Assembly: GCF_988243305.1 (NCBI RefSeq)
Contig: NZ_OZ547136.1
DNA length: 64,000 nucleotides
Direction: 5' to 3' (one strand)
In this document: positions 4,095-38,026 of the stretch, in pieces
Position numbering within the stretch: the stretch's first letter is position 1
Layout of the letters: every line of letters begins with the position of its first letter
Position numbers and translations under genes: made by a program
The notes under the pieces: model-generated
Told to the model about the DNA's origin: nothing
What the model saw: the letters and a program-made list of their open reading frames with translations, nothing else
Database searches by the model: none

Positions 4095-4388
4095 ATGAAA
4101 AAAATGTTGTTTTCTGCCGCTCTGGCAATGCTTATTACAGGATGTGCTCAACAGACGTTTACTGTTGGAAACAAACCGACAGCAGTAACACCAAAGGAAA
4201 CCATCACCCATCACTTCTTCGTTTCGGGAATTGGACAGGAGAAAACTGTTGATGCAGCCAAAATTTGTGGCGGCGCAGAAAATGTTGTTAAAACAGAAAC
4301 CCAGCAAACATTCGTAAATGGATTGCTCGGTTTTATTACTTTAGGCATTTATACTCCGCTGGAAGCGCGTGTGTATTGCTCACAATAA
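4095..4388 (+). CDS. bor: Bor lipoprotein (serum-resistance lipoprotein of lambdoid phages)
   Basis: 97-aa product from internal ATG with SD aggataataag: MKKMLFSAALAMLITGCAQQTFTV..., lipobox LITGC; matches lambda Bor. Confidence 0.9.
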   Translation: MKKMLFSAALAMLITGCAQQTFTVGNKPTAVTPKETITHHFFVSGIGQEKTVDAAKICGGAENVVKTETQQTFVNGLLGFITLGIYTPLEARVYCSQ

Positions 4389-6875: not shown

Positions 6876-7349
6876 ACAGCGAATCAGATCAAATAAAACG
6901 CACATTTGTTAACATTTACACAAAGTCTGCGTGGGATATTCTGAAAGAATATCCATAATGTGGAGAGAATCTATTGAAGTGCATGGTGCCGGGTGCCTCC
7001 CGGTGAATTCAGTACCAGCACCTGAATCCGCGATTATCCCATATACCTACTCGCTGATTGCCCCTCCGCACAGGGGGATTCACCATGCCAGTTTCTTTTA
7101 ACAAACTCCCCGCAAACCAGAGAACAGTCAACCGCCTGAATTGTGAAGTATTTAAAAATTTCTCCCGCTAACTGATACCCGGCTAACAGTCTGGCGTTTT
7201 CTTTTTCAGCAACGGGAAAGCAACAACCACCACACCCGCCACCAGCACACCGTCAGCCAGCACTGACATTATCCGGCTGCTGCAATGCCATTCACAAAAA
7301 CAGTAAGCAATCACTTTTTACCGTAACAGGTGATAATCCAGATATGTAT

Positions 7350-7813: not shown

Positions 7814-7890
7814 TGGCGCGCTGTACTGGATTCGAACCAGTAACCGATTGCTTAGAAGGCAATTGCTCTGTCCGGCTGAGCTAACAACGC
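7814..7890 (-). tRNA. tRNA-Arg (anticodon UCU)
   Basis: Reverse complement gcgttgttagctcagccggacagagcaattgccttctaagcaatcggttactggttcgaatccagtacagcgcgcca folds as cloverleaf: 7-bp acceptor stem, anticodon loop cttctaa, T-loop ttcgaat, CCA end. Confidence 0.9.
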
Positions 7891-7994
7891 TGAATACCGA
7901 TAATGGACCGCTATCGGGGACCCGCCCCCCCCCGCACCAACAACCCTGTTATCGTGTCGTCTGCTCTTCCTGATAAGCTCATGGCGGTTTGTGA

Positions 7995-8070
7995 TGGTGG
8001 CCCTTGCTGGATTTGAACCAGCGACCTGGCGATTATGAGTCGCTCGCTCTCACCACTGAGCTAAAGGGCC
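7995..8070 (-). tRNA. tRNA with CAU anticodon (Ile2/lysidine type or Met), resembling phage ileZ
   Basis: Reverse complement ggccctttagctcagtggtgagagcgagcgactcataatcgccaggtcgctggttcaaatccagcaagggccacca; perfect 7-bp acceptor stem, anticodon loop ctcataa, CCA end. Confidence 0.9.
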
Positions 8071-10469: not shown

Positions 10470-10748
10470 TTACCTCCAGATGCGTTGCTGGAATGTGCGG
10501 GACGGACGCGGTGATCGTTCGGAGTAAGGAAGCCTGACGGAGATTATCCAGTGACGATAATCGAGGCTGAGGGCTTTCTTAATCTCGTATCCGTGTCTGC
10601 GGTAGCACTGAATTAGCCACTCGGCCTGTTCTTCAGTGCATGGGGGATGCTGGAACCAGTCAGATTTGAAAGTGCGGGAACGCCGCCCGTGCCTGCTGGC
10701 AAAGACGGCAGAATCATCAGAATTGTGTAATTTGGTATCGTGCGCCAT
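10470..10748 (-). CDS. Small nin-region protein (Rem-like); start assumed at internal Met
   Basis: MAHDTKLHNSDDSAVFASRHGRRSRTFKSDWFQHPPCTEEQAEWLIQCYRRHGYEIKKALSLDYRHWII...; family from memory. Confidence 0.4.
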   Translation of the reverse strand: MAHDTKLHNSDDSAVFASRHGRRSRTFKSDWFQHPPCTEEQAEWLIQCYRRHGYEIKKALSLDYRHWIISVRLPYSERSPRPSRTFQQRIWR

Positions 10749-10915
10749 CGGTTGTCTCTGCTGGCGCAGCAGGTGCCAGTTGTTCAGGCTGGCGTGCGAA
10801 TTGTAAACCAGAATGCCAGGAAAAAACAAAACCCGCCGAAGCGGGTTACGTGCGGGTGCGTTGAGGATGCCTGACACATCAGAGGTGGCGAGGGATTTCT
10901 CCCTCGCCGGGTCTC

Positions 10916-11071
10916 TTACTCCTCAGGTTCGTAAACTGTGAAGACAGCGACCTCCGTCTGGCCGGTTCGGATTCGTACCTCGCAGAGGTCTTTCCTCGTT
11001 ACCAGTGCCGTCACTATGACGGTTAAACAGATGACGATCAGGGCGATTAACATCGCCTTTTGCTGCTTCAT
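10916..11071 (-). CDS. hok: Hok/Gef family type I toxin (HokD/RelF-like)
   Basis: 51-aa product MKQQKAMLIALIVICLTVIVTALVTRKDLCEVRIRTGQTEVAVFTVYEPEE; single TM helix and conserved Cys; track ORF carries an in-frame 19-codon upstream extension. Confidence 0.9.
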   Translation of the reverse strand: MKQQKAMLIALIVICLTVIVTALVTRKDLCEVRIRTGQTEVAVFTVYEPEE

Positions 11072-11791
11072 AGCCTGCTTCTCCTTGCCTTTCGGCACGT
11101 AAGAGGCTAACCTAGATTTGCCGTTCATAGATTGAGCCTCAGATTAATGTTAAGCGTCTTGCAGGACGCGTAATGTTAACTGGGGCTTTTCTCTATCTGC
11201 CTTTGGTGTTCATGCCTGAGGCAGATAGCCTCAAGCACCCGCAGCAATTCTACTTAACTCCCGTCACCTCGCCAATATAAAATCAATCAGAAAGGCGATC
11301 CATAAGAACAACAGCAAGACAATAAATTGCCATTACAGCCGCAATAGCTAGCGCACATTTGAGAACCAGCACGACAACCTCCTGTATTGGACGTACACCA
11401 GTTCTGATAAATATGAGGCTGTCTCATCATTGATTCAATATAACTATTGGGTATAGTTTCTGTGATTTTGTTCTGTAGAAATGGAACACAACAACCAGTC
11501 ACCACCAGCACTTCTTTAAATACGCCAAGTCCGACGCAAGCTAACCTTCTAGTCCGCTTTGAGCGAGGAGCGGACCAAACCCGGCCAACTGACTCTTAAA
11601 GGGGCCGCAGGAATTTTTCGTCTGAACTTTCGAAGCTCCTCTCCCTGAAGACAGAAAACTTCTGTGTGCTGTGGGAATATTGAATCTTTGCATTAGATAT
11701 AAATAATTTTATCCCGCCTGAAGTTTACATTATTTTATTTATCTGTTTTTCTAAATCAGACTGCACTCCTTACTTAAATCAGGAGCCAGTC

Positions 11792-12991
11792 ATGCCATTT
11801 GTTATTTATGTGTTTACTATCAGTGCCTTTGCGCTCGGACTCGCGGAATTTGTCCCCATTGGGCTGACAGACGTTATGGCTCAGGGGTTGTGTGTGGGTG
11901 TGGAGCAGACCGGGGCAGCGGTTACAACCTATGCACTGGGGGCAACGTTCGCGGCACCCGTACTGTCTGCGCTGACAGCAAGCTGGAGCCGGAAAAATGT
12001 AATGCTTACAACTGCCGTTGTGTTTACTGCCGGTAGTCTGGCGGCCGCGTTTGCAGCCACATTACCTCAGCTCCTGTTAGCGCGGTTCATTGCTGGTCTG
12101 GGACACGGCCTGTTTCTGGCTGCGGCATCCAGTACCGCAGCTCGTCTTGCTGGACCGGGTAAAGCAGGCAGAGCGGTGGCTGTGGTATTTGGTGGCTTTA
12201 CTCTGGCGATGGCAATCGGCGTACCGCTGAGTACATGGTTGGGGGGGGTGGTCTCATGGCGTCCAGTTCTCGGCGCTATTGCCGCTTTTGGCGCGTTCGG
12301 ATTCCTTGGACTGTTGTTCGGTATGAAAGATCCCGTACGCAGCGTGCCCGGTGAACATAGTGACTCAGCAATGCAGAATATCGGCATGCTGTTTAACCGT
12401 AAGTTGCTGGCCGGCGCGCTGGTTACGGTGCTGGCGTATGCAGGCTCGTTTACGGCTTACACCTTTATCGCACCTATTCTGACGCAGGTGACAGGGGTTA
12501 CCGGAGCAAAGGTGAGTCTGTTTATGCTGGTTTACGGTATTACAGCTGCGGTAGGTAATATTCTTGGTGGGAAACTTACCGACAGCATGGGGGTTAATCG
12601 TGCCAATATACTCATCATTAGCGGCATTGTTGTTGTCGTGCTTGGTATGTGGCTGCTGTCATCCTCACCGGTGAGCATGGGCATTCTGGTTGCGCTGCTG
12701 GGTATGGTGACATTTGCCGCAGTGCCGGCACTGCAGGCCCGTCTGATTGGTGTCGCTGAGCAACATGCTCCTCATGCGCATGGTGTTGCTGCCGGCCTGA
12801 ATATTGCGGGCTTCAACTCAGGTATAGCGCTGGGATCAGTACTGGGCAGCATTACTATAAGCCACGCCGGTATCGTGTATACCGGTATCAGCGGTGCGAT
12901 TGTTTCTCTGCTCGGCCTGCTGTTGCTGCTTGCACAAATCCGTCGCAGCCACAGTCGTAAATTTCAACAGGTTAAAATCGTAGGCCAGTAA
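11792..12991 (+). CDS. MFS transporter (12-TM)
   Basis: 399-aa highly hydrophobic ORF MPFVIYVFTISAFALGLAEFVPIGLTDVMAQ... with MFS-like repeat organisation. Confidence 0.7.
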   Translation: MPFVIYVFTISAFALGLAEFVPIGLTDVMAQGLCVGVEQTGAAVTTYALGATFAAPVLSALTASWSRKNVMLTTAVVFTAGSLAAAFAATLPQLLLARFIAGLGHGLFLAAASSTAARLAGPGKAGRAVAVVFGGFTLAMAIGVPLSTWLGGVVSWRPVLGAIAAFGAFGFLGLLFGMKDPVRSVPGEHSDSAMQNIGMLFNRKLLAGALVTVLAYAGSFTAYTFIAPILTQVTGVTGAKVSLFMLVYGITAAVGNILGGKLTDSMGVNRANILIISGIVVVVLGMWLLSSSPVSMGILVALLGMVTFAAVPALQARLIGVAEQHAPHAHGVAAGLNIAGFNSGIALGSVLGSITISHAGIVYTGISGAIVSLLGLLLLLAQIRRSHSRKFQQVKIVGQ

Positions 12992-13002
12992 AGGGAGGTT
13001 AT

Positions 13003-13695
13003 ATGCTTACCCGTGAAAATATGCTTAATGGCACATTTGTCAGGGTGCATGAAGCGCTGCTCCCGGCGAATATGCTCTGGGACGCTGAAAAAATACGCGC
13101 ATCAATGAACTCTACTCTGGAGGAGCGCCCGACGGGTGCTCCTTTCTGGATATTTGCCTACGGGTCATTGATGTGGAATCCCGTGCTGGCAATTGAAGAA
13201 ATGCAACGGGCCCGTCTGAAAGGATGGCAGCGCAGTTTCTGCATTCGTTTGATATCCGGACGAGCGACTCCTGATGTCCCCGGCAGGATGTTATCGCTCG
13301 ACGAAGGTGGAATTACCGAAGGTATTGCGTTCAGACTGCCGGAATCGACTCTTATTAATGAGCTGGAAATTGTCTGGACGCGCGAGATGATAACCGGTCT
13401 TTACCGTCCGGTCTGGGCAGACGTTTCGCTAGGAAACGGTGAGGAAATTCAGGCGCTGGCTTTCGTATCAGACAGACTGCATCCGCATTATGAACAGGAC
13501 AATCTTACAGCGACCGTAGCGTTGAGCATCGCATCTGCCCGTGGAGACATTGGCACGAATGCAGATTATGTATGGAAACTGCAGGCCACTCTGGGTGCGT
13601 TGGGAATACGGGATGATTACGTGAGTGAACTGGCCCTTGCTCTGCATGAGGCTCCCTGTAACGATAAACTTCATCAGCGAGGCGCTTCACTATGA
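13003..13695 (+). CDS. ChaC-like gamma-glutamylcyclotransferase family protein
   Basis: 230-aa ORF with FWIFAYGSLMWNP motif and overall similarity to ChaC. Confidence 0.7.
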   Translation: MLTRENMLNGTFVRVHEALLPANMLWDAEKIRASMNSTLEERPTGAPFWIFAYGSLMWNPVLAIEEMQRARLKGWQRSFCIRLISGRATPDVPGRMLSLDEGGITEGIAFRLPESTLINELEIVWTREMITGLYRPVWADVSLGNGEEIQALAFVSDRLHPHYEQDNLTATVALSIASARGDIGTNADYVWKLQATLGALGIRDDYVSELALALHEAPCNDKLHQRGASL

Positions 13696-14573
13696 GCCAT
13701 CTGAGCCATCTGCGAACGTTTCTTGAGGCCTATCGCTCTGGCTCCTTTTCAAAGGCGGCAGAACTACTGGGCATCACTCAGCCCGCGGCGTCACAGCATA
13801 TCCAGTCTCTTGAGACTCTGGTTGGTAAGCGTCTGTTTATCAGGCAGGCCAGAGGCGTGACGGCAACCGAAGCTGCGGATGAGCTTGCCCGCTCAGTTTC
13901 ACCCTTCATTGATGGTCTGGAAGAAAAGCTGTCCTCTTTCCGGTCAGGCTCTGTACACGGGGGAACAATTAATCTGGCAGGACCGCCAGATTTTATTCAT
14001 TCCCGGCTTGGGACAGTAATGGCTCCACTAATGAAGGAGGGGTATCGCCTACGCTTTCATACCGGCAATAAGCAACGTATTTATTCCCTTTTGCATGACG
14101 GGAGCGCCGATCTCGCTGTTACCGCATCTATGCCTGATGACCGTCTGTACGGCTATGCACATCTACTGACTGAACGCATGCTCCTTGTTCATGCTCCCGC
14201 CATGTCAGAGATCATCGGATCAGAACCTGGTGCTGAAACGCTTGCCTCATTACCGCTGATTGCTTATGACGAAGAGTTGCCACTGATTAGAGCGCTCTGG
14301 GCCTCCATGTTTCAGAGAGCCCCTGAGATGCAGGCTACATTCACCATTCCGGATTTACGTATTATCCGCGACTTGGTCTGTGACGGCCACGGGTGGACAG
14401 TGCTGCCGGATTATCACTGTGACAATGACCTGAAAAGTGGTCGCCTGATTTCAGTGACACCTGCAGACCTCGCTCCGACTAATCATCTTTATCTGGTCTG
14501 GAACAAAAGGACGGCTAATAACAGCCGAACCGCCTATGTTCGGGATTACATTCTTAAAACGTTTCCGCGTTGA
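13692..14573 (+). CDS. LysR-family transcriptional regulator
   Basis: 293-aa ORF MSHLSHLRTFLEAYRSGSFSKAAELLGITQPAASQHIQSLE... (LysR HTH), overlaps ChaC-like stop by 4 nt. Confidence 0.85.
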   Translation: MSHLSHLRTFLEAYRSGSFSKAAELLGITQPAASQHIQSLETLVGKRLFIRQARGVTATEAADELARSVSPFIDGLEEKLSSFRSGSVHGGTINLAGPPDFIHSRLGTVMAPLMKEGYRLRFHTGNKQRIYSLLHDGSADLAVTASMPDDRLYGYAHLLTERMLLVHAPAMSEIIGSEPGAETLASLPLIAYDEELPLIRALWASMFQRAPEMQATFTIPDLRIIRDLVCDGHGWTVLPDYHCDNDLKSGRLISVTPADLAPTNHLYLVWNKRTANNSRTAYVRDYILKTFPR

Positions 14574-14625
14574 TGTTTGAAACGGATGATTGGCGATGTG
14601 TATCATAAGTTACGTATGTCCGCTT

Positions 14626-14641
14626 CTGGCACAAAGCAGAC
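14626..14641 (+). repeat. 16-17 bp direct repeat, copy 1 (ctggcacaaagcagac), flanking the membrane-protein/BCCT module
   Basis: Near-identical copy cttggcacaaagcggac at 18298-18314. Confidence 0.5.
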
Positions 14642-14703
14642 GCCCACTCTCACGCGAATGCTTTGCCCTTGACTTGCCAACAACCGTATCGCTTGCTCCG
14701 CAA

Positions 14704-15996
14704 CTATGGTTTTTTATTAGAACCTTCGCCACTAAATAAATTATAATAAATTGATTTTATTAGATATCTGTCAGAATCTATATGGTCAGCACGAGTAGCA
14801 TGCTCTAATGTTTCAAATGCTAGGGTTTGTGCGGCTTCAGCAAAAATTCCAGGCCAACCCTTACTCAGCATCGACAGTCCTTTAAGTACCCTTATCTGAA
14901 TTTCCCTCATACTGGCACCATCGCGCGCAACAGGTGAGAAAAAGTCTTCAAGTAGATCGTTATTCTGAAGTGGTGCAACATGTACAGAAGGATATTTCAC
15001 TTCTATTTCATCAGATTTATTCTGCGCGTAAGCGGAAAGTATACGTACACCTCTGCCAATGACATCAATGGCGGTTCCAGGATCGTTCACTGCGGGGGAA
15101 AGGGCTCGGCAGGCTATTTCGGCCATGACGCTAAGACAAAATCGGGGGTCCTGAGCAAATGAACGTACATCCGAGACAATAATCGTCTCAAGTAAATCGG
15201 TGCTGATTGATGACTCCTGGCCCTGACTCAGGTACAAAACTGGCGTGGACGGATGTATGAAACTGCCCGGCTGCGCCACGAGGTATACATGACGGGGATC
15301 ATTGGTCAGCAGCTTGCTGAGTTTCACCATATCAACATATTCAACATAGCCAATCTTTTTCGGATAAACTGCAACCGTTCCTTTCGGCTGTTCATTGTTC
15401 TCAAGCCATGGATATCCGCCGAGACAGGGATTTCTTGCTCTCGCAATAAATGTTTCGATGGCCGCCTGTTCTACTTTTGCCGTTGTCTCACCAACCCTCC
15501 CCAGAGAGGTCAAATGCTGTATCCAGCGAAGCAATGTGATGAGGATTAAGGCAATGACAACCAGTGTTACAATGAATAAAATGACTCTCCCCCTTTCTCC
15601 ATAAGCTCCCATATTGAGGGCAATAATCCCTACCAGACTGAAGAGAAAAGAACCGATGAAGGTGGCCAGTACATTTTGTGTGGTGACGTCTTCAACAACT
15701 AAACGAGTAGCTCTGGGAGTCACATTAGTAGTGGCTGAACCGTAGGCTGTGACCATGATGCTCAGCGAAAATGTGGTCACTGCCAGCATACTCGATGCCA
15801 GTATGTTCAGAATGTTATCGACTGCTTCCGCACCAACCTTCACGGAAACCGACTCAGGTATCATTGATTTAAAAAGAATTGATAAAAGGGCCGTTATTAT
15901 TGCGACAATTGCGAATAACGTTGCCCTGAACCATAGTTTTTTAAATGTCTGCTTCAGCATCCATTTCCAGCGTGAAATCATTCTGCATTCCCTCAT
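14704..15996 (-). CDS. Polytopic inner-membrane protein, family uncertain (possibly DUF2254-like)
   Basis: 430-aa ORF with N-terminal TM helices and a soluble C-terminal region; start codon uncertain. Confidence 0.5.
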   Translation of the reverse strand: MRECRMISRWKWMLKQTFKKLWFRATLFAIVAIITALLSILFKSMIPESVSVKVGAEAVDNILNILASSMLAVTTFSLSIMVTAYGSATTNVTPRATRLVVEDVTTQNVLATFIGSFLFSLVGIIALNMGAYGERGRVILFIVTLVVIALILITLLRWIQHLTSLGRVGETTAKVEQAAIETFIARARNPCLGGYPWLENNEQPKGTVAVYPKKIGYVEYVDMVKLSKLLTNDPRHVYLVAQPGSFIHPSTPVLYLSQGQESSISTDLLETIIVSDVRSFAQDPRFCLSVMAEIACRALSPAVNDPGTAIDVIGRGVRILSAYAQNKSDEIEVKYPSVHVAPLQNNDLLEDFFSPVARDGASMREIQIRVLKGLSMLSKGWPGIFAEAAQTLAFETLEHATRADHIDSDRYLIKSIYYNLFSGEGSNKKP

Positions 15997-16044
15997 ATTG
16001 CAGCCGGGATAAATAAATGCCGCCTCTGTGGCGGCATGTTGCTG

Positions 16045-18048
16045 TTAACGAACCAGATGCAGGAAGTGCAGGTGTTTTTCGTACTGGTCCAGTATGTCAT
16101 TAATCAGCTGTTCCTGATTCCAGCCCATTACATCATAATTTTGGCCGCCCTCTTTGAGATAGACTTCAGCGCGATAATATCGATGTTGTTCACTCTGCTG
16201 CTCATCATTATCCAGCGCAGCGAGCGCGAAGGTCGGTGAGTTATACCCGCGAAGCCTCACTTCATATATATAATTCAGCTCGTTGCCCAAATCGACTTCA
16301 AGGCGAATACGATCCTCGGCGGCGTCACTGATGTGGCTTATCGTTCCCTGCTTGTTAAGTTCCTCCTGAACCAGCGTCATGGCGGGTTGGATAATGTCGT
16401 CCATAAAACGTTTCACAAGAGAGCGCTTCGGCAAATACGCGATATTGCGTAACCTTCTCTGCCAGGGAATTGGGTTACGTGCAGCCGTAGGAGCAATAGT
16501 CGCCATGCTAAGGCTTTCACGCTTGGTCAAATCCCGACGCAGGGCTTTTAACAGTCCGTATATGGATATTAATAAGATAACTGAGAAGGGCAATGCACTC
16601 GCTATCGTTACGGTTTGCAACGCACTCAGCCCCCCTGCGATCAGCAGGGCAATAGCAACAACGCCCATGAGCGATGCCCAGAAAATTCGCTGCCAGACGG
16701 GCGTGTTTGCCACCCCACCTGATGCCAGAGTATCCACAACCATTGCCCCCGAATCAGCAGACGTTACAAAGAAGACGATGACCATCGCCATTGCAATGAA
16801 TGACAGCACGGAAGAGAACGGGAAATGCTCCAGGAAATTAAACAGGGCAAGCGCAACATCCTGCTGAACGGTATTGGCGAGGTCAGTGGCGCCCTGGTTC
16901 ATGATGAGATAGATGGCGCTGTTTCCAAACACCGTCATCCACATGAGCGTAAAGCCGGCGGGAACAAACAACACGCCAGTCACGAACTCACGAATTGTCC
17001 TGCCGCGGGAAACGCGTGCAATGAACATACCTACAAACGGCGACCATGAAAGCCACCATCCCCAGTATAATAATGTCCAGCCCCCCAGCCAGTTGCTCGA
17101 CTTGGGTTCATACGCGTAAAGGTTGAACGTTTTACTCACCAGTTCCGACAGATAACCACCCGTATTTTCCACAAATGACTTCAGCAGAAGCACAGTGGGA
17201 CCCAGGCACAAGACCAGCGCCAGGAGCAACACCGCCAGGCCCAGATTAAGCTCAGACAGGATGCGTATTCCCTTGTCCAGGCCGGACACCACCGAAATCG
17301 TCGCTAACCCCGTGATGACCACGATCAAAATGACCTGTACCGTTTCATTGATGGGCACGCCGAAAAGATGGTTCAAACCGGCATTCACCTGCAATACACC
17401 GTAACCCAGTGATGTTGCAACGCCAAAGACAGTGCCTATCACGGCGAAGATATCAACCGCGTGGCCTATAGGCCCGTAAATGCGATCGCCGATAATGGGA
17501 TAGAGCGCAGAACGCAGCGTTAAAGGCAGACCGTGACGGTAACTGAAAAAGGCCAGAATCAGCGCCACGATGGCATAAATTGCCCATGCGTGCAGACCCC
17601 AGTGGAAGAACGTCAGGCGCATGGCTTCCTTCGCTGCCGCAACGGTCTCTGGAGTGCCGACAGGTGGCGAAAGATAATGCATCACAGGTTCGGCAACGCC
17701 AAAGAACATCAGGCCGATCCCCATCCCTGCCGAAAAAAGCATCGCGAACCAGGAGTGGTAGCTGAAATCAGGCTGCGCATGGTCTGGGCCCAGCTTTATA
17801 TCACCGTAACGTGAGAGTCCAAGGAACGTGACGCTCAGTAAAATCAGGGCCACAGCAAGTATGTAGAACCAGCTGGCATTCGTGAAGATTTGTTGCTGAA
17901 GTAGTTTAAAATTTTTGTCGGCGACATCCGGGAATACGGCGGCAAAGGCGACAAGAAGGAAAATTAGCAAAGCAGATGTAAAGAATACCGCTTTGTTAAT
18001 CTGGCTTGTAGACTTCTTTGGGGTTGTATCATTTTCACTCATAATCAT
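16045..18048 (-). CDS. BCCT-family transporter (BetT-like choline/betaine transporter paralog)
   Basis: 667-aa ORF with BCCT hallmarks ...WTLLYWGWWLSWSPFVGMFIARVSRGRTIREF... and a BetT-like C-terminal cytoplasmic extension. Confidence 0.8.
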   Translation of the reverse strand: MIMSENDTTPKKSTSQINKAVFFTSALLIFLLVAFAAVFPDVADKNFKLLQQQIFTNASWFYILAVALILLSVTFLGLSRYGDIKLGPDHAQPDFSYHSWFAMLFSAGMGIGLMFFGVAEPVMHYLSPPVGTPETVAAAKEAMRLTFFHWGLHAWAIYAIVALILAFFSYRHGLPLTLRSALYPIIGDRIYGPIGHAVDIFAVIGTVFGVATSLGYGVLQVNAGLNHLFGVPINETVQVILIVVITGLATISVVSGLDKGIRILSELNLGLAVLLLALVLCLGPTVLLLKSFVENTGGYLSELVSKTFNLYAYEPKSSNWLGGWTLLYWGWWLSWSPFVGMFIARVSRGRTIREFVTGVLFVPAGFTLMWMTVFGNSAIYLIMNQGATDLANTVQQDVALALFNFLEHFPFSSVLSFIAMAMVIVFFVTSADSGAMVVDTLASGGVANTPVWQRIFWASLMGVVAIALLIAGGLSALQTVTIASALPFSVILLISIYGLLKALRRDLTKRESLSMATIAPTAARNPIPWQRRLRNIAYLPKRSLVKRFMDDIIQPAMTLVQEELNKQGTISHISDAAEDRIRLEVDLGNELNYIYEVRLRGYNSPTFALAALDNDEQQSEQHRYYRAEVYLKEGGQNYDVMGWNQEQLINDILDQYEKHLHFLHLVR

Positions 18049-18845: not shown

Positions 18846-19934
18846 TTACCCCCTGAAGCCCGGCGGAATTTCGTTATCCGGTTCAGAAATATGATTCACA
18901 CAACGCTGGTTGTTCGTGCCGCTTACCTGGAGCAACCAGGGGTTCTCAAAATTCCGGTCCGGTCCAAAAAACGTCGTCGCTCGCTGAACAAATTCCGTTC
19001 CCGTTTTCCCGGTAGCCGCCAAGTATCTTGCGTAACGCCTCACGCCATCCAGCATGGCCTCTGGTGGCACCCCCTCGCGTAATCTGGCCTTCCAGGCACT
19101 GAAAGCGGATTTCTTCGGGTTTGCCCCAGCACGCAACGGGTACTCCCGCCAGACCTGTTCGAACACATCCGGATAATCCACTCGTCCCACAGACTGCCCG
19201 GTGTTTTCCGGGACTACCCGATCGGCTTCCCGCTGAATGGCGGAATCGGCTTCAGGCTGCTGCAGTTGGTGTGATTGCTCCGCCCTTGCGGTCATCACCT
19301 GCTGCACAGCGCCCGAATCGGCTTTCAGCGCATACGCTGAATCGGCTTCCGGTGTCGTGCCTGCTGGCTGACCAAGATTGACGGTCTGAACATCCCCTGC
19401 CTGGTTCGTGGCGTTTTTTACGCCATGGACCATAGTGTTTTGATCTTCTTGATCTGTATCTTTATCTGTATCTTTATCTGTATCTTTATCTGTCGTGACT
19501 CGTCGTGACATGTGCGTGACATTTCGTGACGCGCCGTGACAATCGCCATTTTGTTCCCGCTTTCTTTCCCTCTCTCGCTGCGCCCTCTTGCGCTCTGCAG
19601 GAGATTTTGCGGTTTGCGAAATATTGCCGTTGTCCTCTTTAAGCACCTGGCGTTTTTCCCATCCAGTGATTAAATCACCATCAAGTACCCGCCCCTGCAT
19701 CGTCTGCAAAATTGAATCAATTACCTCTTCTGTCACGTCGAGCGCACTTGCCAAATCTTCTGTCGTGACATCAATGTGACCTCGCGTGACATTTCGTGAC
19801 GCGCTCACCAGGAGGTGGATATACACTGCCATCACTGTTGCAATTGGCTGCCCTGACACCCTGGCAATTGTTCGCCACTTAGGGTCATTTGGCATGTCAT
19901 GCCATAATCTGAGCCAGGCGTTAGCCATACTCAC
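18846..19934 (-). CDS. Replication initiator (O-like) containing the origin iterons
   Basis: 362-aa ORF; internal DKDT tandem repeat and two clusters of CGTGAC iterons inside the coding sequence, as in lambda O/ori. Confidence 0.6.
   Translation of the reverse strand: MSMANAWLRLWHDMPNDPKWRTIARVSGQPIATVMAVYIHLLVSASRNVTRGHIDVTTEDLASALDVTEEVIDSILQTMQGRVLDGDLITGWEKRQVLKEDNGNISQTAKSPAERKRAQRERERKREQNGDCHGASRNVTHMSRRVTTDKDTDKDTDKDTDQEDQNTMVHGVKNATNQAGDVQTVNLGQPAGTTPEADSAYALKADSGAVQQVMTARAEQSHQLQQPEADSAIQREADRVVPENTGQSVGRVDYPDVFEQVWREYPLRAGANPKKSAFSAWKARLREGVPPEAMLDGVRRYARYLAATGKTGTEFVQRATTFFGPDRNFENPWLLQVSGTNNQRCVNHISEPDNEIPPGFRG
19452..19540. repeat. Origin-like repeat cluster 1: ~3.5 tandem copies of a 12-bp unit (atctgtatcttt) followed by five CGTGAC iterons at 10-11 bp spacing
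   Basis: Read directly at 19441-19540. Confidence 0.7.
19764..19800. repeat. Origin-like repeat cluster 2: four (C)GTGAC iterons; shares an exact 21-bp block (gcgtgacatttcgtgacgcgc) with cluster 1
   Basis: Read directly at 19761-19810; an inverted copy gtcacg lies at ~19732. Confidence 0.65.
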
Positions 19935-19999: not shown

Positions 20000-20425
20000 T
20001 CAATGCACAGCCACAATATTTCCTGCAGGGCCACCACGATTCATCTGGTTGAAACCAGCGATCGCCACTGCGACAAAATCATCAGCGTCTCTCACCAGTC
20101 GTTCCCGCGTCTCCACTAGTTCCCGAAAATAGGCTGAGCTATGGCTGCGCATTCGGGCCACCAGCAGAGGTGGCATTGCTTTTTCGATAGCTGGTAACAA
20201 CGCCTGAATTTTTTCAACTGCATCAGGGGTGTCTTTCTCTACCCAGCGGAAAATTTTCTGGGTATTGCGAGCCAGGGCTTCCGGATGGCTGTCGTCATAC
20301 AGTTCTGGGAACGTCATACCCAGTTCAAAATAAGCCCTGGTTATTTCAGCTGCCGGAACTTTTTCACCGTCCGGATGCGCCCAGGCATTCATCGCCATGC
20401 GGATGTGTTCATGCTTGATTTTCAT
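20000..20425 (-). CDS. YdaT-like protein (CII-position gene of rac-type immunity region)
   Basis: 141-aa ORF MKIKHEHIRMAMNAWAHPDGEKVPAAEITRAYFELGMTFPELYDD...; follows the cro-like gene. Confidence 0.5.
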   Translation of the reverse strand: MKIKHEHIRMAMNAWAHPDGEKVPAAEITRAYFELGMTFPELYDDSHPEALARNTQKIFRWVEKDTPDAVEKIQALLPAIEKAMPPLLVARMRSHSSAYFRELVETRERLVRDADDFVAVAIAGFNQMNRGGPAGNIVAVH

Positions 20426-20690
20426 GAATCAAGCTCCTAGAAAGTGGTTGTGTTAACATTTTGGTATCTTCCAGCTCGGGCCAAATATTCATCCAATCAA
20501 AAGGCCTTAGTTGCTGACGTGTAACTTCACCATTACTGGCTCGCTCAATAAGGACACATAACGATGCCCCTAACACTTGACCTTTACTCAATGCCTTTCT
20601 TAGATAACCGATGCTGGTACCACACTCGCATGCAAACATACGCTGTTCATCTGACGAAAGAGAATTGAGAAATATTCTTAATTCTTCCAT
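20409..20690 (-). CDS. Cro-like HTH regulator (YdaS family)
   Basis: 93-aa ORF with HTH ...CGTSIGYLRKALSKGQ...; divergent from repressor gene across operator region. Confidence 0.6.
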   Translation of the reverse strand: MEELRIFLNSLSSDEQRMFACECGTSIGYLRKALSKGQVLGASLCVLIERASNGEVTRQQLRPFDWMNIWPELEDTKMLTQPLSRSLIHENQA

Positions 20691-20718
20691 AGCTACTCCT
20701 TAGTAAACACAGCAAAGA

Positions 20719-20754
20719 ATACCCACAGGTAAACAAAAGTCAATACCCACAGGT
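20719..20754. promoter_or_regulatory. OR-like operator region: two direct copies of ATACCCACAGGT between cro-like and repressor genes
   Basis: Copies at ~20719-20730 and ~20743-20754, with inverted flanks aggtaaacaa / ttgtttacct. Confidence 0.55.
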
Positions 20755-20790
20755 TGTTTACCTTGCAGTAATCGCATCTATTATTTACCT

Positions 20791-21210
20791 ATGGACAAAT
20801 ATGAATTTAGACGACAGCAACTCATCAAAATTCGTGATGAGAAATGCGATGGTAAAGCGGTTAACGTGGCCAGAAAGATCGGGCGCGAGCCTTCTTATGT
20901 ATCAAGAATGTTGTACCCAGAGGGGAAAAAGGGAAAAAAACGGATCGCTGATGATATGGTGGAGATTATCGAAGAGTCCTTTGGGTTACCCCGGGGATGG
21001 ATGGATGGTATCGTTTCATCATCAACGAACACAGCCTCCAGTTATGAAACAAGGGTTCTAACGCCACGACAACGTATTTTTTTAGATCTCTTAGACGAAC
21101 TGCCAGAAAGTGAAGCGGATAACTTATTAAAAACTCTTGAAGAGAAAAAACAGTATTACAATATGATCTACGAAGAAATCCGTAAAAAGAAAGCACAAAA
21201 CGCATCATAG
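20791..21210 (+). CDS. Putative prophage repressor (HTH protein, cI position)
   Basis: 139-aa ORF MDKYEFRRQQLIKIRDEKCDGKAVNVARKIGREPSYVSRML...; divergent to cro-like gene, flanked by operator-like palindromes. Confidence 0.55.
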   Translation: MDKYEFRRQQLIKIRDEKCDGKAVNVARKIGREPSYVSRMLYPEGKKGKKRIADDMVEIIEESFGLPRGWMDGIVSSSTNTASSYETRVLTPRQRIFLDLLDELPESEADNLLKTLEEKKQYYNMIYEEIRKKKAQNAS

Positions 21211-21252
21211 CTCACCAAACAACTAGTCACCAGTTAAGACACCGCAAAAAGT

Positions 21253-21289
21253 TACCCATGGGTATTTACTTTTTAAATACCTATGGGTA
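21253..21289. promoter_or_regulatory. OL-like operators: palindromes TACCCATGGGTA and TACCTATGGGTA
   Basis: Two 12-bp (near-)palindromes 25 bp apart downstream of the repressor gene, sharing the TACCCA half-site with the OR region. Confidence 0.5.
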
Positions 21290-21475
21290 TCCTTCTTTTC
21301 ATACCAACCCACCCCGCCCCACAGAATGCAGGGCAATACTTCGAGTTACCAGGCAGTGGTCAGGGGTTAAGTAGCCAGCCCGAGGCGTAAGAACATGACG
21401 GCAGGGTTCAACTTTAATAACTATGCAGCAGGTTTTTGTTCCGCTACCCCGGCGTTAAGGGGAAATGAGGTCAGC

Positions 21476-21631
21476 ATGGATACTATCGATCTTGGCAACA
21501 GCGAATCTCTGGTATGTGGCGTGTTCCCCAACCAAGACGGTACGTTCACCGCGATGACGTATACCAAAAGCAAAACGTTTAAAACCGAAAATGGTGCCCG
21601 TCGCTGGCTGGAAAGAAACTCAGGTGAGTGA
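21476..21631 (+). CDS. Small early-left-operon protein (51 aa)
   Basis: ATG with SD aaggggaaatgagg; MDTIDLGNSESLVCGVFPNQDGTFTAMTYTKSKTFKTENGARRWLERNSGE. Confidence 0.45.
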   Translation: MDTIDLGNSESLVCGVFPNQDGTFTAMTYTKSKTFKTENGARRWLERNSGE

Positions 21632-21632
21632 T

Positions 21633-21761
21633 ATGGATTTCGACACAATCATGGAAAAGGCTTACGAAGAATACTTCGAAGGTCTTGCCGAAGGCGAAGA
21701 AGCTCTCAGCTTCAACGAATTTAAACAGGCGCTTTCCAGTTCGGCAAAATCTAACGGCTGA
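21633..21761 (+). CDS. Small early-left-operon protein (42 aa, acidic)
   Basis: MDFDTIMEKAYEEYFEGLAEGEEALSFNEFKQALSSSAKSNG; start 2 nt after preceding stop; too short for ORF track. Confidence 0.4.
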   Translation: MDFDTIMEKAYEEYFEGLAEGEEALSFNEFKQALSSSAKSNG

Positions 21762-21790: not shown

Positions 21791-22006
21791 ATGCAGAAAC
21801 GAGAACCCGTCATCATCGCGCCAGACTATACCGATGATGAACTTTATGAGTGGATGCACCAGAAAATTAATGCAGCGCAGGATCTGAAATGGGCCAATGA
21901 AGCTAGGGCTAAGCAGGCTGAAAATCTGTCCGCTCTGGAGCAGGATATCACCAATCTGGAAAAAGCAGCAGCATTAAGCATTGCCAGAATGATTACAGGT
22001 TGGTAA
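21791..22006 (+). CDS. Small early-left-operon protein (71 aa)
   Basis: ORF MQKREPVIIAPDYTDDELYEWMHQKINAAQDLKWANEARAKQAENLSALEQDITNLEKAAALSIARMITGW. Confidence 0.45.
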   Translation: MQKREPVIIAPDYTDDELYEWMHQKINAAQDLKWANEARAKQAENLSALEQDITNLEKAAALSIARMITGW

Positions 22007-22545
22007 TAAAGGAGTTCTCCACGGGTGAGGTGGAGTGCGTGTGCCGGACACGGGTGAGCATCCGGCACTGACAGTTTACTGAAAGGATATTTCCCTGAAA
22101 AGTCAGACCATAACGCGAAAGCGCACGGCGAGGTAGCTGGTTCATAGATAGCCTGTCGTTAAATTTTCGTCGACCGTGCGCTTCCGGTTGTGGCAATCCG
22201 CGAAATGGCGCGGCGGTAAGTATGGCGGGGTTATTCCTTCCCCCGTTGAGGACACCGGGTTGTCAGGTTGACCATACGCTTAAGTGACAACCCCGCTGCA
22301 ACGCCCTCTGTTATCAATTTTCTGGTGACGTTTGGCGGTATCAGTTTTACTCCGTGACTGCTCTGCCGCCCTTTTTAAAGTGAATTTTGTGATGTGGTGA
22401 ATGCGGCTGAGCGCACGCGGAACAGTTAAAACCAAAAACAGTGTTATGGGTGGATTCTCTGTATCCGGCGTTAATTGTTAACTGGTTAACGTCACCTGGA
22501 GGCACCAGGCACCGCATCACAAAATTCATTGTTGAGGACGCGATA

Positions 22546-22734
22546 ATGAAAACGTTATTACCAAACGTTAATACGTCTGAAGGTTGTTTTGAAATTGGTG
22601 TCACTATCAGTAACCCAGTATTTACTGAAGATGCCATTAACAAGAGAAAACAAGAACGGGAGCTATTAAATAAAATATGCATTGTTTCAATGCTGGCTCG
22701 TTTACGTCTGATGCCAAAAAGATGTGCACAATGA
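22546..22734 (+). CDS. ralR: RalR (Lar) restriction-alleviation protein / type I toxin
   Basis: 62-aa product MKTLLPNVNTSEGCFEIGVTISNPVFTEDAINKRKQERELLNKICIVSMLARLRLMPKRCAQ, recalled as rac RalR; track ORF has upstream extension. Confidence 0.8.
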   Translation: MKTLLPNVNTSEGCFEIGVTISNPVFTEDAINKRKQERELLNKICIVSMLARLRLMPKRCAQ

Positions 22735-22922
22735 ATTCAGCATTTGCGCTTGTTCTGACAGTTTTTCTTGTTTCCGGAGAGCCAGTTGATATTGCAGTCA
22801 GTGTTCACAGGACAATGCAGGAGTGTATGACTGCAGCAACCGAACAGAAAATTCCCGGTAACTGTTACCCGGTCGATAAAGTTATTCACCAGGATAATAT
22901 CGAAATCCCGGCAGGTCTTTAA
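22731..22922 (+). CDS. Small secreted or membrane protein (rac YdaC-like position)
   Basis: MNSAFALVLTVFLVSGEPVDIAVSVHRTMQECMTAATEQKIPGNCYPVDKVIHQDNIEIPAGL; ATGA overlap with ralR stop. Confidence 0.5.
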   Translation: MNSAFALVLTVFLVSGEPVDIAVSVHRTMQECMTAATEQKIPGNCYPVDKVIHQDNIEIPAGL

Positions 22923-34970: not shown

Positions 34971-37397
34971 ATGATGAAAATCCATACCACAGAGGCGCTC
35001 ATGAAGGCTGAAATCAGCCGTAGAAGTCTGATGAAAACCTCCGCACTTGGCAGTCTTGCGCTGGCAAGCAGTGCTTTCACTCTGCCATTTTCCCAAATGG
35101 TCCGAGCGGCAGAGGCACCGGTAGAAGAGAAAGCGGTCTGGAGTTCCTGCACCGTTAACTGCGGGAGCCGCTGTCTGTTACGTTTGCATGTGAAAGATGA
35201 CACCGTGTACTGGGTGGAGTCTGATACGACAGGTGACGACGTCTACGGTAATCATCAGGTTCGGGCATGTTTACGCGGGCGCTCTATCCGCCGACGGATG
35301 AATCATCCTGACAGGTTGAAATATCCCATGAAGCGCGTCGGCAAGCGCGGTGAAGGTAAATTTGAACGGATAAGTTGGGATGAAGCCCTGGATACCATCA
35401 GTGATAATCTTCGGCGGATCCTTGAAGATTACGGCAATGAGGCTGTACATGTCCTGTACGGAACAGGCGTAGATGGCGGAAACATCACCAACTCGAACGT
35501 CCCGTACCGTCTGATGAACTCTTGCGGTGGTTTTCTCAGTCGCTATGGCAGCTACAGTACCGCTCAAATCAGTGCCGCAATGAGTTATATGTTCGGTGCC
35601 AATGATGGCAACAGCCCGGATGATATAGCCAATACGAAACTGGTCGTTATGTTCGGAAATAACCCGGCAGAAACCCGGATGAGCGGCGGTGGTGTCACTT
35701 ACTACGTCGAGCAAGCCCGAGAACGTTCAAACGCACGCATGATCGTCATCGATCCACGTTATAACGACACTGCTGCCGGGCGTGAAGATGAATGGCTGCC
35801 AATTCGCCCAGGCACCGATGGCGCACTGGCCTGTGCGATTGCCTGGGTACTGATTACTGAAAACATGGTCGATCAGCCATTTCTCGACAAATATTGTGTT
35901 GGTTACGATGAAAAAACGCTGCCCGCCAACGCACCACGTAACGCGCATTATAAAGCCTATATTCTGGGCGAAGGGCCTGACGGCATAGCTAAAACGCCGG
36001 AATGGGCAGCAAAAATCACCAGCATCCCGGCAGAAAAAATTATCCATTTGGCACGAGAGATCGGTTCAGCAAAACCTGCTTATATTTGTCAGGGTTGGGG
36101 GCCACAACGACACTCCAACGGCGAACAAACGTCCCGCGCTATTGCCATGCTTTCCGTTCTCACCGGTAACGTCGGCATAAACGGCGGCAACTCAGGTGTA
36201 CGCGAAGGTAGCTGGGATCTGGGGGTAGAATGGTTCCCGATGCTCGAGAATCCTGTTAAAACGCAGATTTCCGTCTTTACATGGACAGATGCCATCGACC
36301 ATGGTACGGAAATGACCGCGACCCGTGATGGTGTTCGTGGAAAAGAAAAACTGGATGTCCCCATCAAGTTTTTATGGTGCTACGCCAGTAACACATTGAT
36401 CAATCAACATGGCGACATCAATCACACCCATGAGGTGCTTCAGGATGACAGCAAGTGCGAGATGATTGTTGGCATTGACCACTTCATGACTGCCTCGGCT
36501 AAGTATTGCGATATCCTGTTGCCCGACCTGATGCCAACAGAGCAAGAAGACCTTATCTCTCACGAATCTGCCGGGAATATGGGCTATGTGATCCTCGCCC
36601 AACCCGCAACCTCAGCAAAATTTGAACGCAAACCCATCTACTGGATGCTGAGTGAAGTCGCCAAACGCTTAGGACCAGACGTTTATCAAACCTTTACTGA
36701 AGGCCGCAGTCAGCACGAATGGATCAAATATCTCCATGCGAAAACGAAGGAACGTAACCCTGAGATGCCCGACTACGAGGAGATGAAAACGACCGGGATC
36801 TTTAAGAAAAAATGCCCGGAAGAACACTACGTCGCTTTCCGCGCATTCCGTGAAGATCCACAGGCAAACCCGTTGAAAACACCTTCGGGGAAAATCGAAA
36901 TTTATTCTGAACGACTGGCGACGATTGCGGATACCTGGGAATTGAAAAAAGATGAAATTATTCATCCCCTTCCTGCGTATACCCCAGGTTTTGATGGCTG
37001 GGACGATCCCCTGCGGAAAACCTATCCACTGCAGCTAACGGGCTTCCACTACAAAGCGCGTACCCACTCCAGCTACGGCAATATTGATGTGTTACAGCAG
37101 GCCTGCCCACAAGAGGTGTGGATCAACCCTATTGATGCTCAGGCACGCGGTATCCGTCATGGCGATACCGTGCGGGTATTTAACAATAATGGAGAAATGC
37201 TGATTGCCGCAAAAGTGACTCCGCGTATTCTGCCTGGCGTTACCGCCATCGGGCAAGGTGCGTGGCTTAAAGCGGATATGTTTGGTGACCGGGTCGATCA
37301 CGGCGGCAGTATTAATATTCTGACCTCTCACCGCCCTTCACCGCTGGCAAAGGGAAACCCGTCGCACAGCAATCTTGTCCAGATCGAAAAGGTTTAA
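34971..37397 (+). CDS. ynfF: Molybdopterin oxidoreductase catalytic subunit YnfF (paralog of YnfE/DmsA)
   Basis: 808-aa ORF with Tat signal SRRSLMKTSALGSLALASSAF and CTVNCGSRC. Confidence 0.9.
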   Translation: MMKIHTTEALMKAEISRRSLMKTSALGSLALASSAFTLPFSQMVRAAEAPVEEKAVWSSCTVNCGSRCLLRLHVKDDTVYWVESDTTGDDVYGNHQVRACLRGRSIRRRMNHPDRLKYPMKRVGKRGEGKFERISWDEALDTISDNLRRILEDYGNEAVHVLYGTGVDGGNITNSNVPYRLMNSCGGFLSRYGSYSTAQISAAMSYMFGANDGNSPDDIANTKLVVMFGNNPAETRMSGGGVTYYVEQARERSNARMIVIDPRYNDTAAGREDEWLPIRPGTDGALACAIAWVLITENMVDQPFLDKYCVGYDEKTLPANAPRNAHYKAYILGEGPDGIAKTPEWAAKITSIPAEKIIHLAREIGSAKPAYICQGWGPQRHSNGEQTSRAIAMLSVLTGNVGINGGNSGVREGSWDLGVEWFPMLENPVKTQISVFTWTDAIDHGTEMTATRDGVRGKEKLDVPIKFLWCYASNTLINQHGDINHTHEVLQDDSKCEMIVGIDHFMTASAKYCDILLPDLMPTEQEDLISHESAGNMGYVILAQPATSAKFERKPIYWMLSEVAKRLGPDVYQTFTEGRSQHEWIKYLHAKTKERNPEMPDYEEMKTTGIFKKKCPEEHYVAFRAFREDPQANPLKTPSGKIEIYSERLATIADTWELKKDEIIHPLPAYTPGFDGWDDPLRKTYPLQLTGFHYKARTHSSYGNIDVLQQACPQEVWINPIDAQARGIRHGDTVRVFNNNGEMLIAAKVTPRILPGVTAIGQGAWLKADMFGDRVDHGGSINILTSHRPSPLAKGNPSHSNLVQIEKV

Positions 37398-37407
37398 GGA
37401 GTAGCCC

Positions 37408-38025: not shown

Positions 38026-38026
38026 A

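Follow-up and report, generated by a model that had tools for sequence, protein, structure and literature searches.

In the Qin prophage of Escherichia coli K-12, the repressor DicA represses the promoter dicBp, lacks a cleavage site, is antagonized by the antirepressor Rem, and forms a bistable switch with DicC (PMC10448788). The same system shows RecA-independent stochastic switching that needs DicC, and it is induced by urea and heat (PMC10448788). The short repressors of the Gifsy prophages also go uncleaved and are displaced by small LexA-controlled antirepressors (PMC3121763). Here, we analyzed a 64,000-nucleotide (nt) stretch of an E. coli chromosome (contig NZ_OZ547136.1 of RefSeq assembly GCF_988243305.1; the whole stretch is hereafter the window), with a focus on a gene for a 139-amino-acid (aa) protein and the DNA around it. 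Based on sequence comparisons, we consider it highly probable that positions 20690 to 21300 form the immunity switch of a defective lambdoid prophage at the Qin site.

The prophage spans window positions 1300 to 27100 between ydfJ and rspB, which is the Qin insertion site in K-12, according to the annotation of a 99.9%-identical genome and comparison with K-12. It retains the lysis cassette, antiterminator, rusA, hokD/sok, replication genes, integrase, and excisionase; head genes are absent, only tail-fiber fragments are left, and cargo and insertion sequence (IS) insertions are present. The gene order is a DUF977 gene, a replication initiator, a CII-like gene of the YdaT family, a Cro-like gene, a 100-bp intergenic region, and the 139-aa gene, followed by a 265-bp gap, ydfA (start at 21476), ydfB, ydfC, DicF, dicB, ydfD, an exonuclease gene, xis, and int. 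The 139-aa gene occupies the exact position of dicA in K-12. We found the complete module in 821 of 5,426 complete E. coli genomes (∼15%), the uropathogen reference strain CFT073 among them, at two or more chromosomal insertion sites. The identical repressor protein occurs on at least 1,000 contigs and is named “hypothetical protein” in RefSeq. A reading made from the sequence only, with no database searches, had already proposed an immunity region here; the layout was as it described, and the defective state of the prophage had gone unnoticed. Three genes make up the core of the region:

20000-20425, minus strand: CII-like/YdaT-family gene, 141 aa, the second gene of the rightward (PR) operon
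20409-20690, minus strand: Cro-like gene, 93 aa, with a YdaS-like helix-turn-helix (HTH) and an AGGAG Shine-Dalgarno sequence at 20700-20696
20791-21210, plus strand: repressor gene, 139 aa, with an HTH domain (residues 1-75), a disordered linker (76-87), and a two-helix DicA-type C-terminal domain (88-139)

Operator-like sites lie on both sides of the repressor gene. A perfect 13-nt direct repeat, AATACCCACAGGT, occurs at 20718-20730 and 20742-20754, 24 bp apart, and the palindromes TACCCATGGGTA (21253-21264) and TACCTATGGGTA (21278-21289) begin 43 and 68 nt past the stop codon of the 139-aa open reading frame (ORF). The exact motif TACCNNNNGGTA is found three times in the 64-kb window, always inside 570 bp around the repressor gene; shuffles of the window gave an expectation of 0.44 exact matches, and 1 shuffle in 100 reached three. 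With one mismatch allowed there were 19 matches versus 13.7 expected, which is not significant alone, and two extra one-mismatch sites, at 20744 and 20759, adjoin exact ones, both in the right operator region (OR). The resulting five operators, three in OR and two in the left operator region (OL), are as follows:

20720-20731: operator O1, TACCCACAGGTA, exact motif; covers the spacer and -10 of PR and lies at about -72 from the ATG
20744-20755: operator O2, TACCCACAGGTT, one mismatch; left half conserved and right half weak; abuts the -35 of PR
20759-20770: operator O3, TACCTTGCAGTA, one mismatch; overlaps the -35 and spacer of PRM at -32 from the ATG
21253-21264: distal OL operator, TACCCATGGGTA, exact motif; directly upstream of the -35 of PL
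21278-21289: proximal OL operator, TACCTATGGGTA, exact motif; over the spacer and -10 of PL, with the same geometry as O1 at PR

These results agree with much of the sequence-only reading. The TACC-N4-GGTA operator family that it placed around the repressor gene was recovered (all three exact sites of the window are here, and their positions are conserved in relatives), as were the OL-like palindromes that it described at 21253 and 21278, ahead of the early-left genes. The two direct sites that it saw in OR exist, but OR has three sites, and the one at 20759 had been missed; its inverted flanks correspond to the right half-site of O1 together with the left half-site of O3 (AGGTAAACAA / TTGTTTACCT). 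At the start codon itself, TACCTATGGACA (20786-20797) looks like the left portion of the proximal OL operator. Because this sequence is preserved in the closest E. coli relative but altered in Salmonella and missing from distant relatives, it was not counted as a fourth operator.

Promoters were scored as matches out of 12 to the sigma-70 consensus; two were called by the scan, and PL, at 8/12 below the scan threshold, was identified by eye:

20757-20784, plus strand: PRM-like promoter, -35 TTTACC (20757-20762), 16-nt spacer, -10 TATTAT (20779-20784), predicted start 20791; scan 9/12
20743-20716, minus strand: PR-like promoter, -35 TTGACT (20743-20738), 16-nt spacer, -10 TATTCT (20721-20716), predicted start ∼20709; scan 9/12
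21265-21293, plus strand: PL promoter, the dicBp equivalent, -35 TTTACT (21265-21270), 17-nt spacer, -10 TATCCT (21288-21293), predicted start ∼21300; 8/12

Relative to these predicted starts, the operators are placed as follows:

O3, from the PRM start (20791): -32 to -21, over the -35 and spacer
O2, from the PRM start (20791): -47 to -36, centered at -41.5
O1, from the PR start (∼20709): -22 to -11
O2, from the PR start (∼20709): -46 to -35
Proximal OL operator, from the PL start (∼21300): -22 to -11
Distal OL operator, from the PL start (∼21300): -47 to -36

As in a CI/Cro switch, a tripartite operator between divergent repressor and cro genes overlaps two predicted back-to-back promoters, and a second operator pair (21253 and 21278), downstream of the repressor gene, brackets the -35 of a predicted PL on the same strand. 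PR and PL have an identical two-operator architecture bracketing the -35. In relatives, the TTGnnn hexamer abutting O2 and a PR -10 beginning within the final two bases of O1 both recur, and the position of PL is equivalent to that of the annotated putative PL of the lambdoid phage mEp043 (TAGACA/TATATT) and of the TTGACx/TATATT hexamers of other relatives. The hexamers of the window PL (TTTACT/TATCCT) are weaker than the TTGACx/TATATT of relatives. The O1-O2 distance is 24 bp in the window, in Pantoea (L006), in Salmonella (L020), and in E. coli (L021), and 25 bp in most of the more distant relatives; the PR spacer is therefore 16 nt rather than 17. The weaker PL hexamers may be a sign that this cryptic prophage has been attenuated.

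We predict a leaderless mRNA for the repressor, because the ATG (20791) lies 6 nt after the -10 of PRM, a Shine-Dalgarno sequence is absent, and the spacing recurs in relatives: a -10-like hexamer is found exactly 6 nt before the ATG in mEp043, Salmonella, Serratia, Yersinia, and metagenome loci. Lambda cI and paaR2 of CP-933P are both documented to start without a leader (PMC8630535). At the other end of the region, sequence common to other immunity types starts at ∼21300-21306, just downstream of PL, so the operators and PL would belong to the exchangeable immunity module. The window Cro-like protein carries a 17-residue C-terminal extension, TKMLTQPLSRSLIHENQA (window 20409-20460), which has no counterpart in the mEp043-type Cro and overlaps the start of the YdaT-like gene. 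The immunity module probably has its left recombination junction at this extension.

We fetched ten independent loci that share the N-terminal domain of the repressor. Four encode an S24 repressor (Salmonella L004, Pantoea L006, mEp043 L008, and Klebsiella L017), and six encode a short one (Serratia L014, Yersinia L015, Salmonella L020, E. coli L021, and the metagenome loci L016 and L022). The OR motif is located at about -72/-47/-32 from the start codon in nine of the ten; the exception, L017, is a Klebsiella remnant that has lost cro and retains, upstream of the repressor gene, a single exact site at -46, as well as the OL pair. An OL pair spaced 25 to 26 bp precedes the early-left genes in nine of ten loci, 43 to 1,918 bp beyond the repressor gene. 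No pair was seen in L022, a 1-kb contig too short to reach OL. Nearly all exact motif matches in the related loci are operator sites; in the Salmonella locus L004, this holds for 4/4 matches in 6.7 kb, versus ∼0.1 expected.

Within the sites, the outer T-A-C-C and G-G-T-A are kept in 29 or 30 of 30 strong sites, and the inner four bases vary as Y-R-Y-R. Among the closest relatives, the outer bases are fixed, and the inner bases and spacers drift. In O2 of the relatives, the left half CAATACC is always retained and the right half degenerates; such half conservation is the pattern of a weak site that would be filled cooperatively. As a negative control, we used phage Tritos, which has the same backbone and the same repressor C-terminal domain with a different N-terminal domain. 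TACC-N4-GGTA is absent from Tritos, which has a different, GTAC-N5-GTAC-like repeat at the corresponding places. This phylogenetic footprinting provides strong comparative evidence for an operator family.

The Cro-like protein matches PHROG 35 (1e-22) and, below the cutoff of 30, the Pfam family YdaS_toxin (25.8 bits). It is 70% identical to the Cro of mEp043, 52 to 69% identical to the Cro proteins of other motif-sharing loci, and 29% identical to K-12 YdaS in alignment. The CII-like gene matches Pfam YdaT_toxin (39.6 bits versus a cutoff of 21) and PHROG 163, “CII-like transcriptional activator” (9e-46), and does not covary with the motif. A wider palindrome, TTACCTG-N10-CAGGTAA, with operator-like half-sites and longer spacing, lies ∼20 bp upstream of the OL pair in mEp043 (L008 4053-4074) and Pantoea (L006 3757-3778), with one further copy in phage 673R7 (L010 7808-7829). 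A search of the window for TACCTG-N10-CAGGTA found none. In Salmonella L004, a ParE-toxin/antitoxin pair (3733-4298) is inserted between the S24-type cI and OL, a slot used by paaA2-parE2 in CP-933P and by rexAB in lambda (PMC8630535). Literature searches for the operator strings, the accession numbers, and mEp043 immunity returned nothing relevant.

The 139-aa protein falls into PHROG 5736, “transcriptional regulator”; Pfam assigned it to no family, and PADLOC gave none either. Its residues 1 to 76/86 are 65 to 83% identical to the N-terminal domains of 221- to 242-aa prophage repressors with a Peptidase_S24 domain (PF00717) from Salmonella, Edwardsiella, Yersinia, Klebsiella, Pantoea, Citrobacter, and mEp043. 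The last of these is a viable phage, and its cI is 65% identical over 86 aa. In Pfam, the 139-aa protein has no PF00717 match, whereas mEp043 cI matches at 1.4e-17. Read directly, the sequence contains no Ala-Gly (AG) or CG dipeptide and ends 52 residues past the linker. The Pfam and dipeptide results confirm the sequence-only claim of a 139-aa repressor without a LexA-like autocleavage domain, a claim that had overlooked the chimeric origin of the protein.

That origin is apparent in the C-terminal domain, which aligned with DicA by BLASTP at 33% identity and 61% positives over 46 aa (E value, 1e-7); conversely, DicA residues 83 to 130 match PHROG 5736 at 5e-9. The NCBIfam DicA model (NF007257) scored 23.9 bits versus a cutoff of 101 and aligned only residues 86 to 136, at profile positions 81 to 131. 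The domain shows the DicA-type C-terminal pattern, L-S/T-P...LL.LF..LPESE... followed by a long helix, and is 72% identical to that of Tritos CI. Based on these comparisons, we conclude that the repressor is a chimera in which a DNA-binding domain of the mEp043 type is joined to a C-terminal domain of the DicA type. Ratios of nonsynonymous to synonymous substitution rates (dN/dS) against the E. coli and Salmonella orthologues were 0.015 to 0.045 for the N-terminal domain, ∼0.09 for the C-terminal domain, and 0.3 to 0.9 for the linker. By this measure, both domains are under purifying selection and the linker is nearly neutral, and we therefore take the chimera to be functional.

An AlphaFold2 model from a 29-sequence alignment had a mean predicted local distance difference test (pLDDT) score of 82, with the linker below 50. 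It places helices at residues 3-18, 23-30, 34-41, and 54-63, a basic loop at 42-53, a disordered linker at 77-87, and C-terminal helices at 92-103 and 106-138. The HTH comprises residues 23-41, in which 34-41 carry SYVSRML, invariant or nearly so across the family. In Foldseek against the Protein Data Bank (PDB), the top match was a repressor from a Salmonella temperate phage, solved in its Rep-Ant complex (5d50; 1.2 to 1.7 Å over 72 aligned columns, 26% identity), followed by XRE-family proteins such as controller proteins and HigA. Because the E values are weak (2e-3), these matches support the fold and not a family assignment. A sequence search of solved structures gave chance-level matches that were set aside (best, ADAR1 Z-alpha; E value, 0.08).

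Some database proteins of 135 to 136 aa from other E. coli strains (P0012, P0015-P0018, and P0110) are frameshift alleles that start in the +1 frame (ATG at 20801) and rejoin the repressor frame at the A/G tract GGGGAAAAAGGGAAAAAAACGG (window 20919-20942). This homopolymer tract inside the repressor gene may be a mutational hot spot.

RecA-stimulated self-cleavage of the repressor appears very unlikely, because the S24 domain is replaced by a DicA-type domain and there is no Ala-Gly site. The sequence-only reading had suggested nonclassical induction, and comparison with full-length relatives supports it: where they have an S24 domain, this protein has a DicA-type helical domain. The same reading had called for an antirepressor search, which we ran by homology and which found none in the window. 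Specifically, tblastn of the window detected no homologue of Rem (best E value, 0.43), and no homologues of DinI, GftA, or IrsA of Gifsy-2 were present. The window also contains no convincing LexA box; its CTGT-N8-ACAG matches are inside genes or have G+C-rich centers. A 92-aa ORF at the position of Rem (10470-10749) was considered as an antirepressor and rejected: it is a PHROG 1212 nin-region gene that occurs in many immunity types and adjoins rem where rem exists.

In the phage collection, Rem homologues are found in DicA-type phages and not in the Tritos/673R7-type phages that share the C-terminal subtype of the window repressor. Because this subtype never co-occurs with Rem there, it may answer to an antirepressor or protease other than Rem. 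In the slot that rem occupies in Qin, between hokD and a YbcN-like gene, Tritos encodes an ORF of 204 aa and a metalloprotease of the ImmA/IrrE type that carries an XRE HTH (L018 3335-5091; record 36334-38090); the window has neither gene. Since Tritos CI shares the C-terminal domain of the window repressor (72%), we regard the 204-aa ORF and the protease as candidates for an alternative antirepressor function. Derepression could run through an antirepressor acting in trans from elsewhere in the genome, protein instability, or stochastic switching; alternatively, the repressor may simply be locked in a decayed prophage.

Downstream of the repressor gene, the sequence-only reading had located early-left genes correctly and missed their identity as the ydfABC-dicF-dicB-ydfD operon, in which dicF, dicB, and ydfD are all intact. 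Coordinates of the protein-coding genes are from the annotation of the 99.9%-identical genome and the ORF list:

21253-21299, plus strand: hairpin of the two OL sites and their inner flanks, then TCCTTCTTTT; terminator-like, 16 pairs (stem 21253-21289)
21476-21631, plus strand: ydfA
21633-21761, plus strand: ydfB
21791-22006, plus strand: ydfC
22320-22371, plus strand: DicF small RNA (sRNA), Rfam 76.7 bits
22546-22734, plus strand: dicB
22731-22922, plus strand: ydfD

The sites, their conservation, the domain homologies, and the selection on the protein were computed here. From them we infer how the switch would work, including binding, promoter use, activation from O2, dimerization, and the induction route. 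The 139-aa repressor would most likely be a dimer, held together by its helical C-terminal domain, with the HTH binding 12-bp TACC-YRYR-GGTA operators. On O1 and O2, it would bracket the -35 and cover the -10 of PR, keeping the Cro-like, CII-like, and replication genes off. O2 adjoins the -35 of PRM with its center at about -41.5, and repressor bound there may stimulate PRM; lambda CI activates PRM from a position centered at about -41.5. O3 overlaps PRM and would limit repressor synthesis at high concentration. The OL pair would block the ydfABC-dicF-dicB-ydfD promoter, so that DicB and DicF, which inhibit division, and the lysis protein YdfD would stay silent. The Cro-like protein covaries with the operators; it probably competes for the same sites, which would yield a bistable switch. 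Derepression would then come from an antirepressor, repressor instability, or stochastic switching, as reported for DicA, and not from RecA-stimulated cleavage.

Several observations weigh against this reading. The Pfam scan found no HTH family in the repressor N-terminal domain, and the Foldseek E values are weak (2e-3), with good superposition at the domain level only. O2 and O3 each carry one mismatch, and PL, matching the consensus at only 8/12 positions, was not called by the scan. Some strains carry frameshifted alleles, so the repressor gene is not indispensable in every background, and no antirepressor was found in the window. Finally, the repressor and Cro covary jointly with the motif, and the comparison alone therefore cannot assign the sites to either. 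This last point also speaks for an assignment of the sites mainly to the Cro-like (YdaS-type) protein, with the 139-aa protein as an accessory or antitoxin-like regulator, as in the view of RacR as antitoxin and YdaS-YdaT as toxin. The Pfam families of YdaS and YdaT are named toxins, and the Cro homologue covaries with the motif as tightly as the repressor N-terminal domain does. Both proteins share operators in lambdoid switches, however, so the covariation is compatible with the immunity-switch reading, and the motif stays with the repressor gene where cro is lost (L017). Genuine S24 CI repressors, mEp043 cI among them, moreover use the repressor N-terminal domain to bind DNA, the 139-aa protein shows no similarity to RacR, and YdaS and YdaT have since been read as analogues of Cro and CII (PMC8630535). 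We therefore judge main use of the sites by the Cro-like protein to be improbable.

The OL palindromes could alternatively serve primarily as an intrinsic terminator of the repressor transcript that stops PRM read-through into the toxic dicB operon. The scan called the 16-pair stem (21253-21289) followed by TCCTTCTTTT, and the RNA fold has an energy of -22.9 kcal/mol (z = -6.0). Between the stop codon (21210) and PL there is no further terminator, where mEp043 and Pantoea have a canonical terminator upstream of OL, and in the E. coli variant L021, the inner bases of both sites are changed yet stay mutually complementary. Any two similar palindromes 25 bp apart will fold, however, so the hairpin is not independent evidence, and we estimate that full intersite complementarity with YRYR inner bases would arise by chance in about 1 locus in 16. 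A terminator cannot stand in for the operators: nine relatives retain the site pair, as far as 1.9 kb from the repressor gene and in every case at the early-left promoter, while the T-rich tail is not conserved and in relatives is the -10 TATATT. A primary terminator role thus seems to us rather unlikely, and termination is plausible as an extra role that the operators acquired in this E. coli lineage. We consider it very improbable that the region is a decayed remnant without function whose motif clustering was inherited from a once-active phage. The loss of head and tail genes, the cargo and IS insertions, the frameshifted repressor alleles in some strains, and the weak consensus match of PL all fit decay, but they must be set against dN/dS values of 0.015 to 0.09 on both folded domains, the exact protein on 1,000 or more contigs, and a module that is complete in 821/5,426 complete E. 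coli genomes at no fewer than two chromosomal sites. Intact dicB, dicF, and ydfD also need repression, being toxic when overexpressed (PMC10448788).

If the immunity-switch reading is correct, the window repressor, not DicA, would keep dicB, dicF, and ydfD silent in carrier strains. K-12 work on DicA, Rem, and dicBF induction would then not be directly transferable to these strains, because a different repressor operates there. The consensus TACC-YRYR-GGTA, together with the promoter map, provides a testable predicted regulon for the immunity group that includes mEp043. We also observed DicA-type C-terminal domains on at least three unrelated DNA-binding domains, those of the window protein, Tritos-type CI, and DicA. 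As a tentative proposal, one we hold possible although not probable, one DNA-binding domain and operator set may exist in two interchangeable forms, an S24 fusion and a DicA-type fusion, with the C-terminal domain acting as a portable “induction module” that rewires induction and leaves immunity unchanged. Under this proposal, the uncleavable repressor of the cryptic prophage would give SOS-proof immunity against mEp043-type phages and could keep a coresident S24-type prophage of the same immunity repressed after DNA damage. The chimeric architecture itself offers a clear case in nature of phage repressors of the SOS-cleavable and antirepressor types exchanging domains.

Elsewhere in the prophage, a 6-kb cargo block at window 11792-18048, between hokD and the DUF977/replication genes, encodes a major facilitator superfamily (MFS) transporter, a gamma-glutamylcyclotransferase, a LysR regulator, a DUF2254 protein, and a BCCT-family (BetT-like) transporter; in CFT073, small phage ORFs occupy the corresponding position of the prophage. 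Further RNA genes (window 6927-7117, 7814-8070, and 10916-11240) include the STnc100 sRNA, tRNA-Arg(UCU), a tRNA with a CAU anticodon (Met according to ARAGORN and Ile according to RefSeq), and the hokD/sok toxin-antisense pair. The replication initiator ORF (18846-19934) has a DKDT-DKDT-DKDT peptide repeat encoded by a short tandem DNA repeat at window 19430-19480, which might mark origin iterons, as in lambda O.

Among described systems, the DicA-DicC-dicBp switch of K-12 Qin (Bejar/Bouche; PMC10448788) shares the chromosomal site (ydfJ to rspB), the controlled operon ydfABC-dicF-dicB-ydfD, the divergent cro-like/repressor layout, and operators at both promoters. Both repressors are short (DicA, 135 aa; window protein, 139 aa), lack a cleavage domain, and have homologous C-terminal domains, and the window gene is immediately upstream of the ydfABC-dicF-dicB operon, where it would act as repressor. 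Unlike the window protein, however, DicA has a P22 C2-like Pfam HTH_3 domain (1.3e-16), so that the DNA-binding domains are unrelated at the family level, and the window protein falls outside the DicA family as a full-length member (23.9 bits versus 101). The operators also differ, Cro is DicC in K-12 and a YdaS-like protein in the window, and rem was not found in the window prophage.

A close match in DNA recognition is the cI-cro region of mEp043 (NC_019706) and of the S24 “LexA family” repressors of Salmonella, Pantoea, Klebsiella, and Edwardsiella. The helix segment REPSYVSRML is identical, and TACC-N4-GGTA operators with matching OR and PL spacing and a predicted leaderless start are shared. 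Those repressors are 221 to 242 aa with PF00717 and presumably SOS cleavable, whereas the window protein has a 52-aa DicA-type helical domain instead. Literature searches found no experimental characterization of the mEp043 operators. The Gifsy-1/-2/-3 repressors GfoR, GtgR, and GfhR (PMC3121763) are similar in length (∼136 to 139 aa), in lacking a cleavage domain, and in lambdoid context. In GtgR of Gifsy-2, the motif that opens the C-terminal domain resembles that of the window protein (RVLDEKEETLLSLFNQLPEAE versus RVLTPRQRIFLDLLDELPESE), over 21 residues only and in a single comparison (E value, 0.001). A dinI-antirepressor-irsA operon and a convincing LexA box, in contrast, were not found in the window.

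PaaR2-YdaS-YdaT of CP-933P (PMC8630535) likewise combines a short CI analogue divergent from a YdaS-like Cro with a YdaT-like CII in a cryptic prophage, with leaderless repressor translation and operators at PR/PRM and PL; the likeness is drawn from the published description. It differs in its operator consensus, GTTTAGTAA, and no toxin-antitoxin genes follow the window repressor. YdaS-like and YdaT-like genes are also divergent from the repressor RacR in Rac, but BLASTP of RacR against the window repressor gave no significant alignment (best E value, 2.3). The CI proteins of Tritos and vB_EcoS-673R7-type phages are, like the window repressor, 139 aa, with C-terminal domains 72% identical to its own. 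Tritos also shares the YdaT-like gene, replication genes, dicB operon, and, immediately beyond PL, the right-hand boundary of the module; its CI has an HTH_3-type N-terminal domain instead, with GTAC-N5-GTAC-like operators.

Based on these comparisons, the locus would belong to a known class, that of short, noncleavable DicA/Gifsy-type lambdoid repressors in a CI/Cro-like switch controlling dicBF. New are the uncharacterized immunity specificity TACC-YRYR-GGTA, common to mEp043, and the chimeric repressor, so far annotated as a hypothetical protein. The finding extends this class and does not overturn current understanding.

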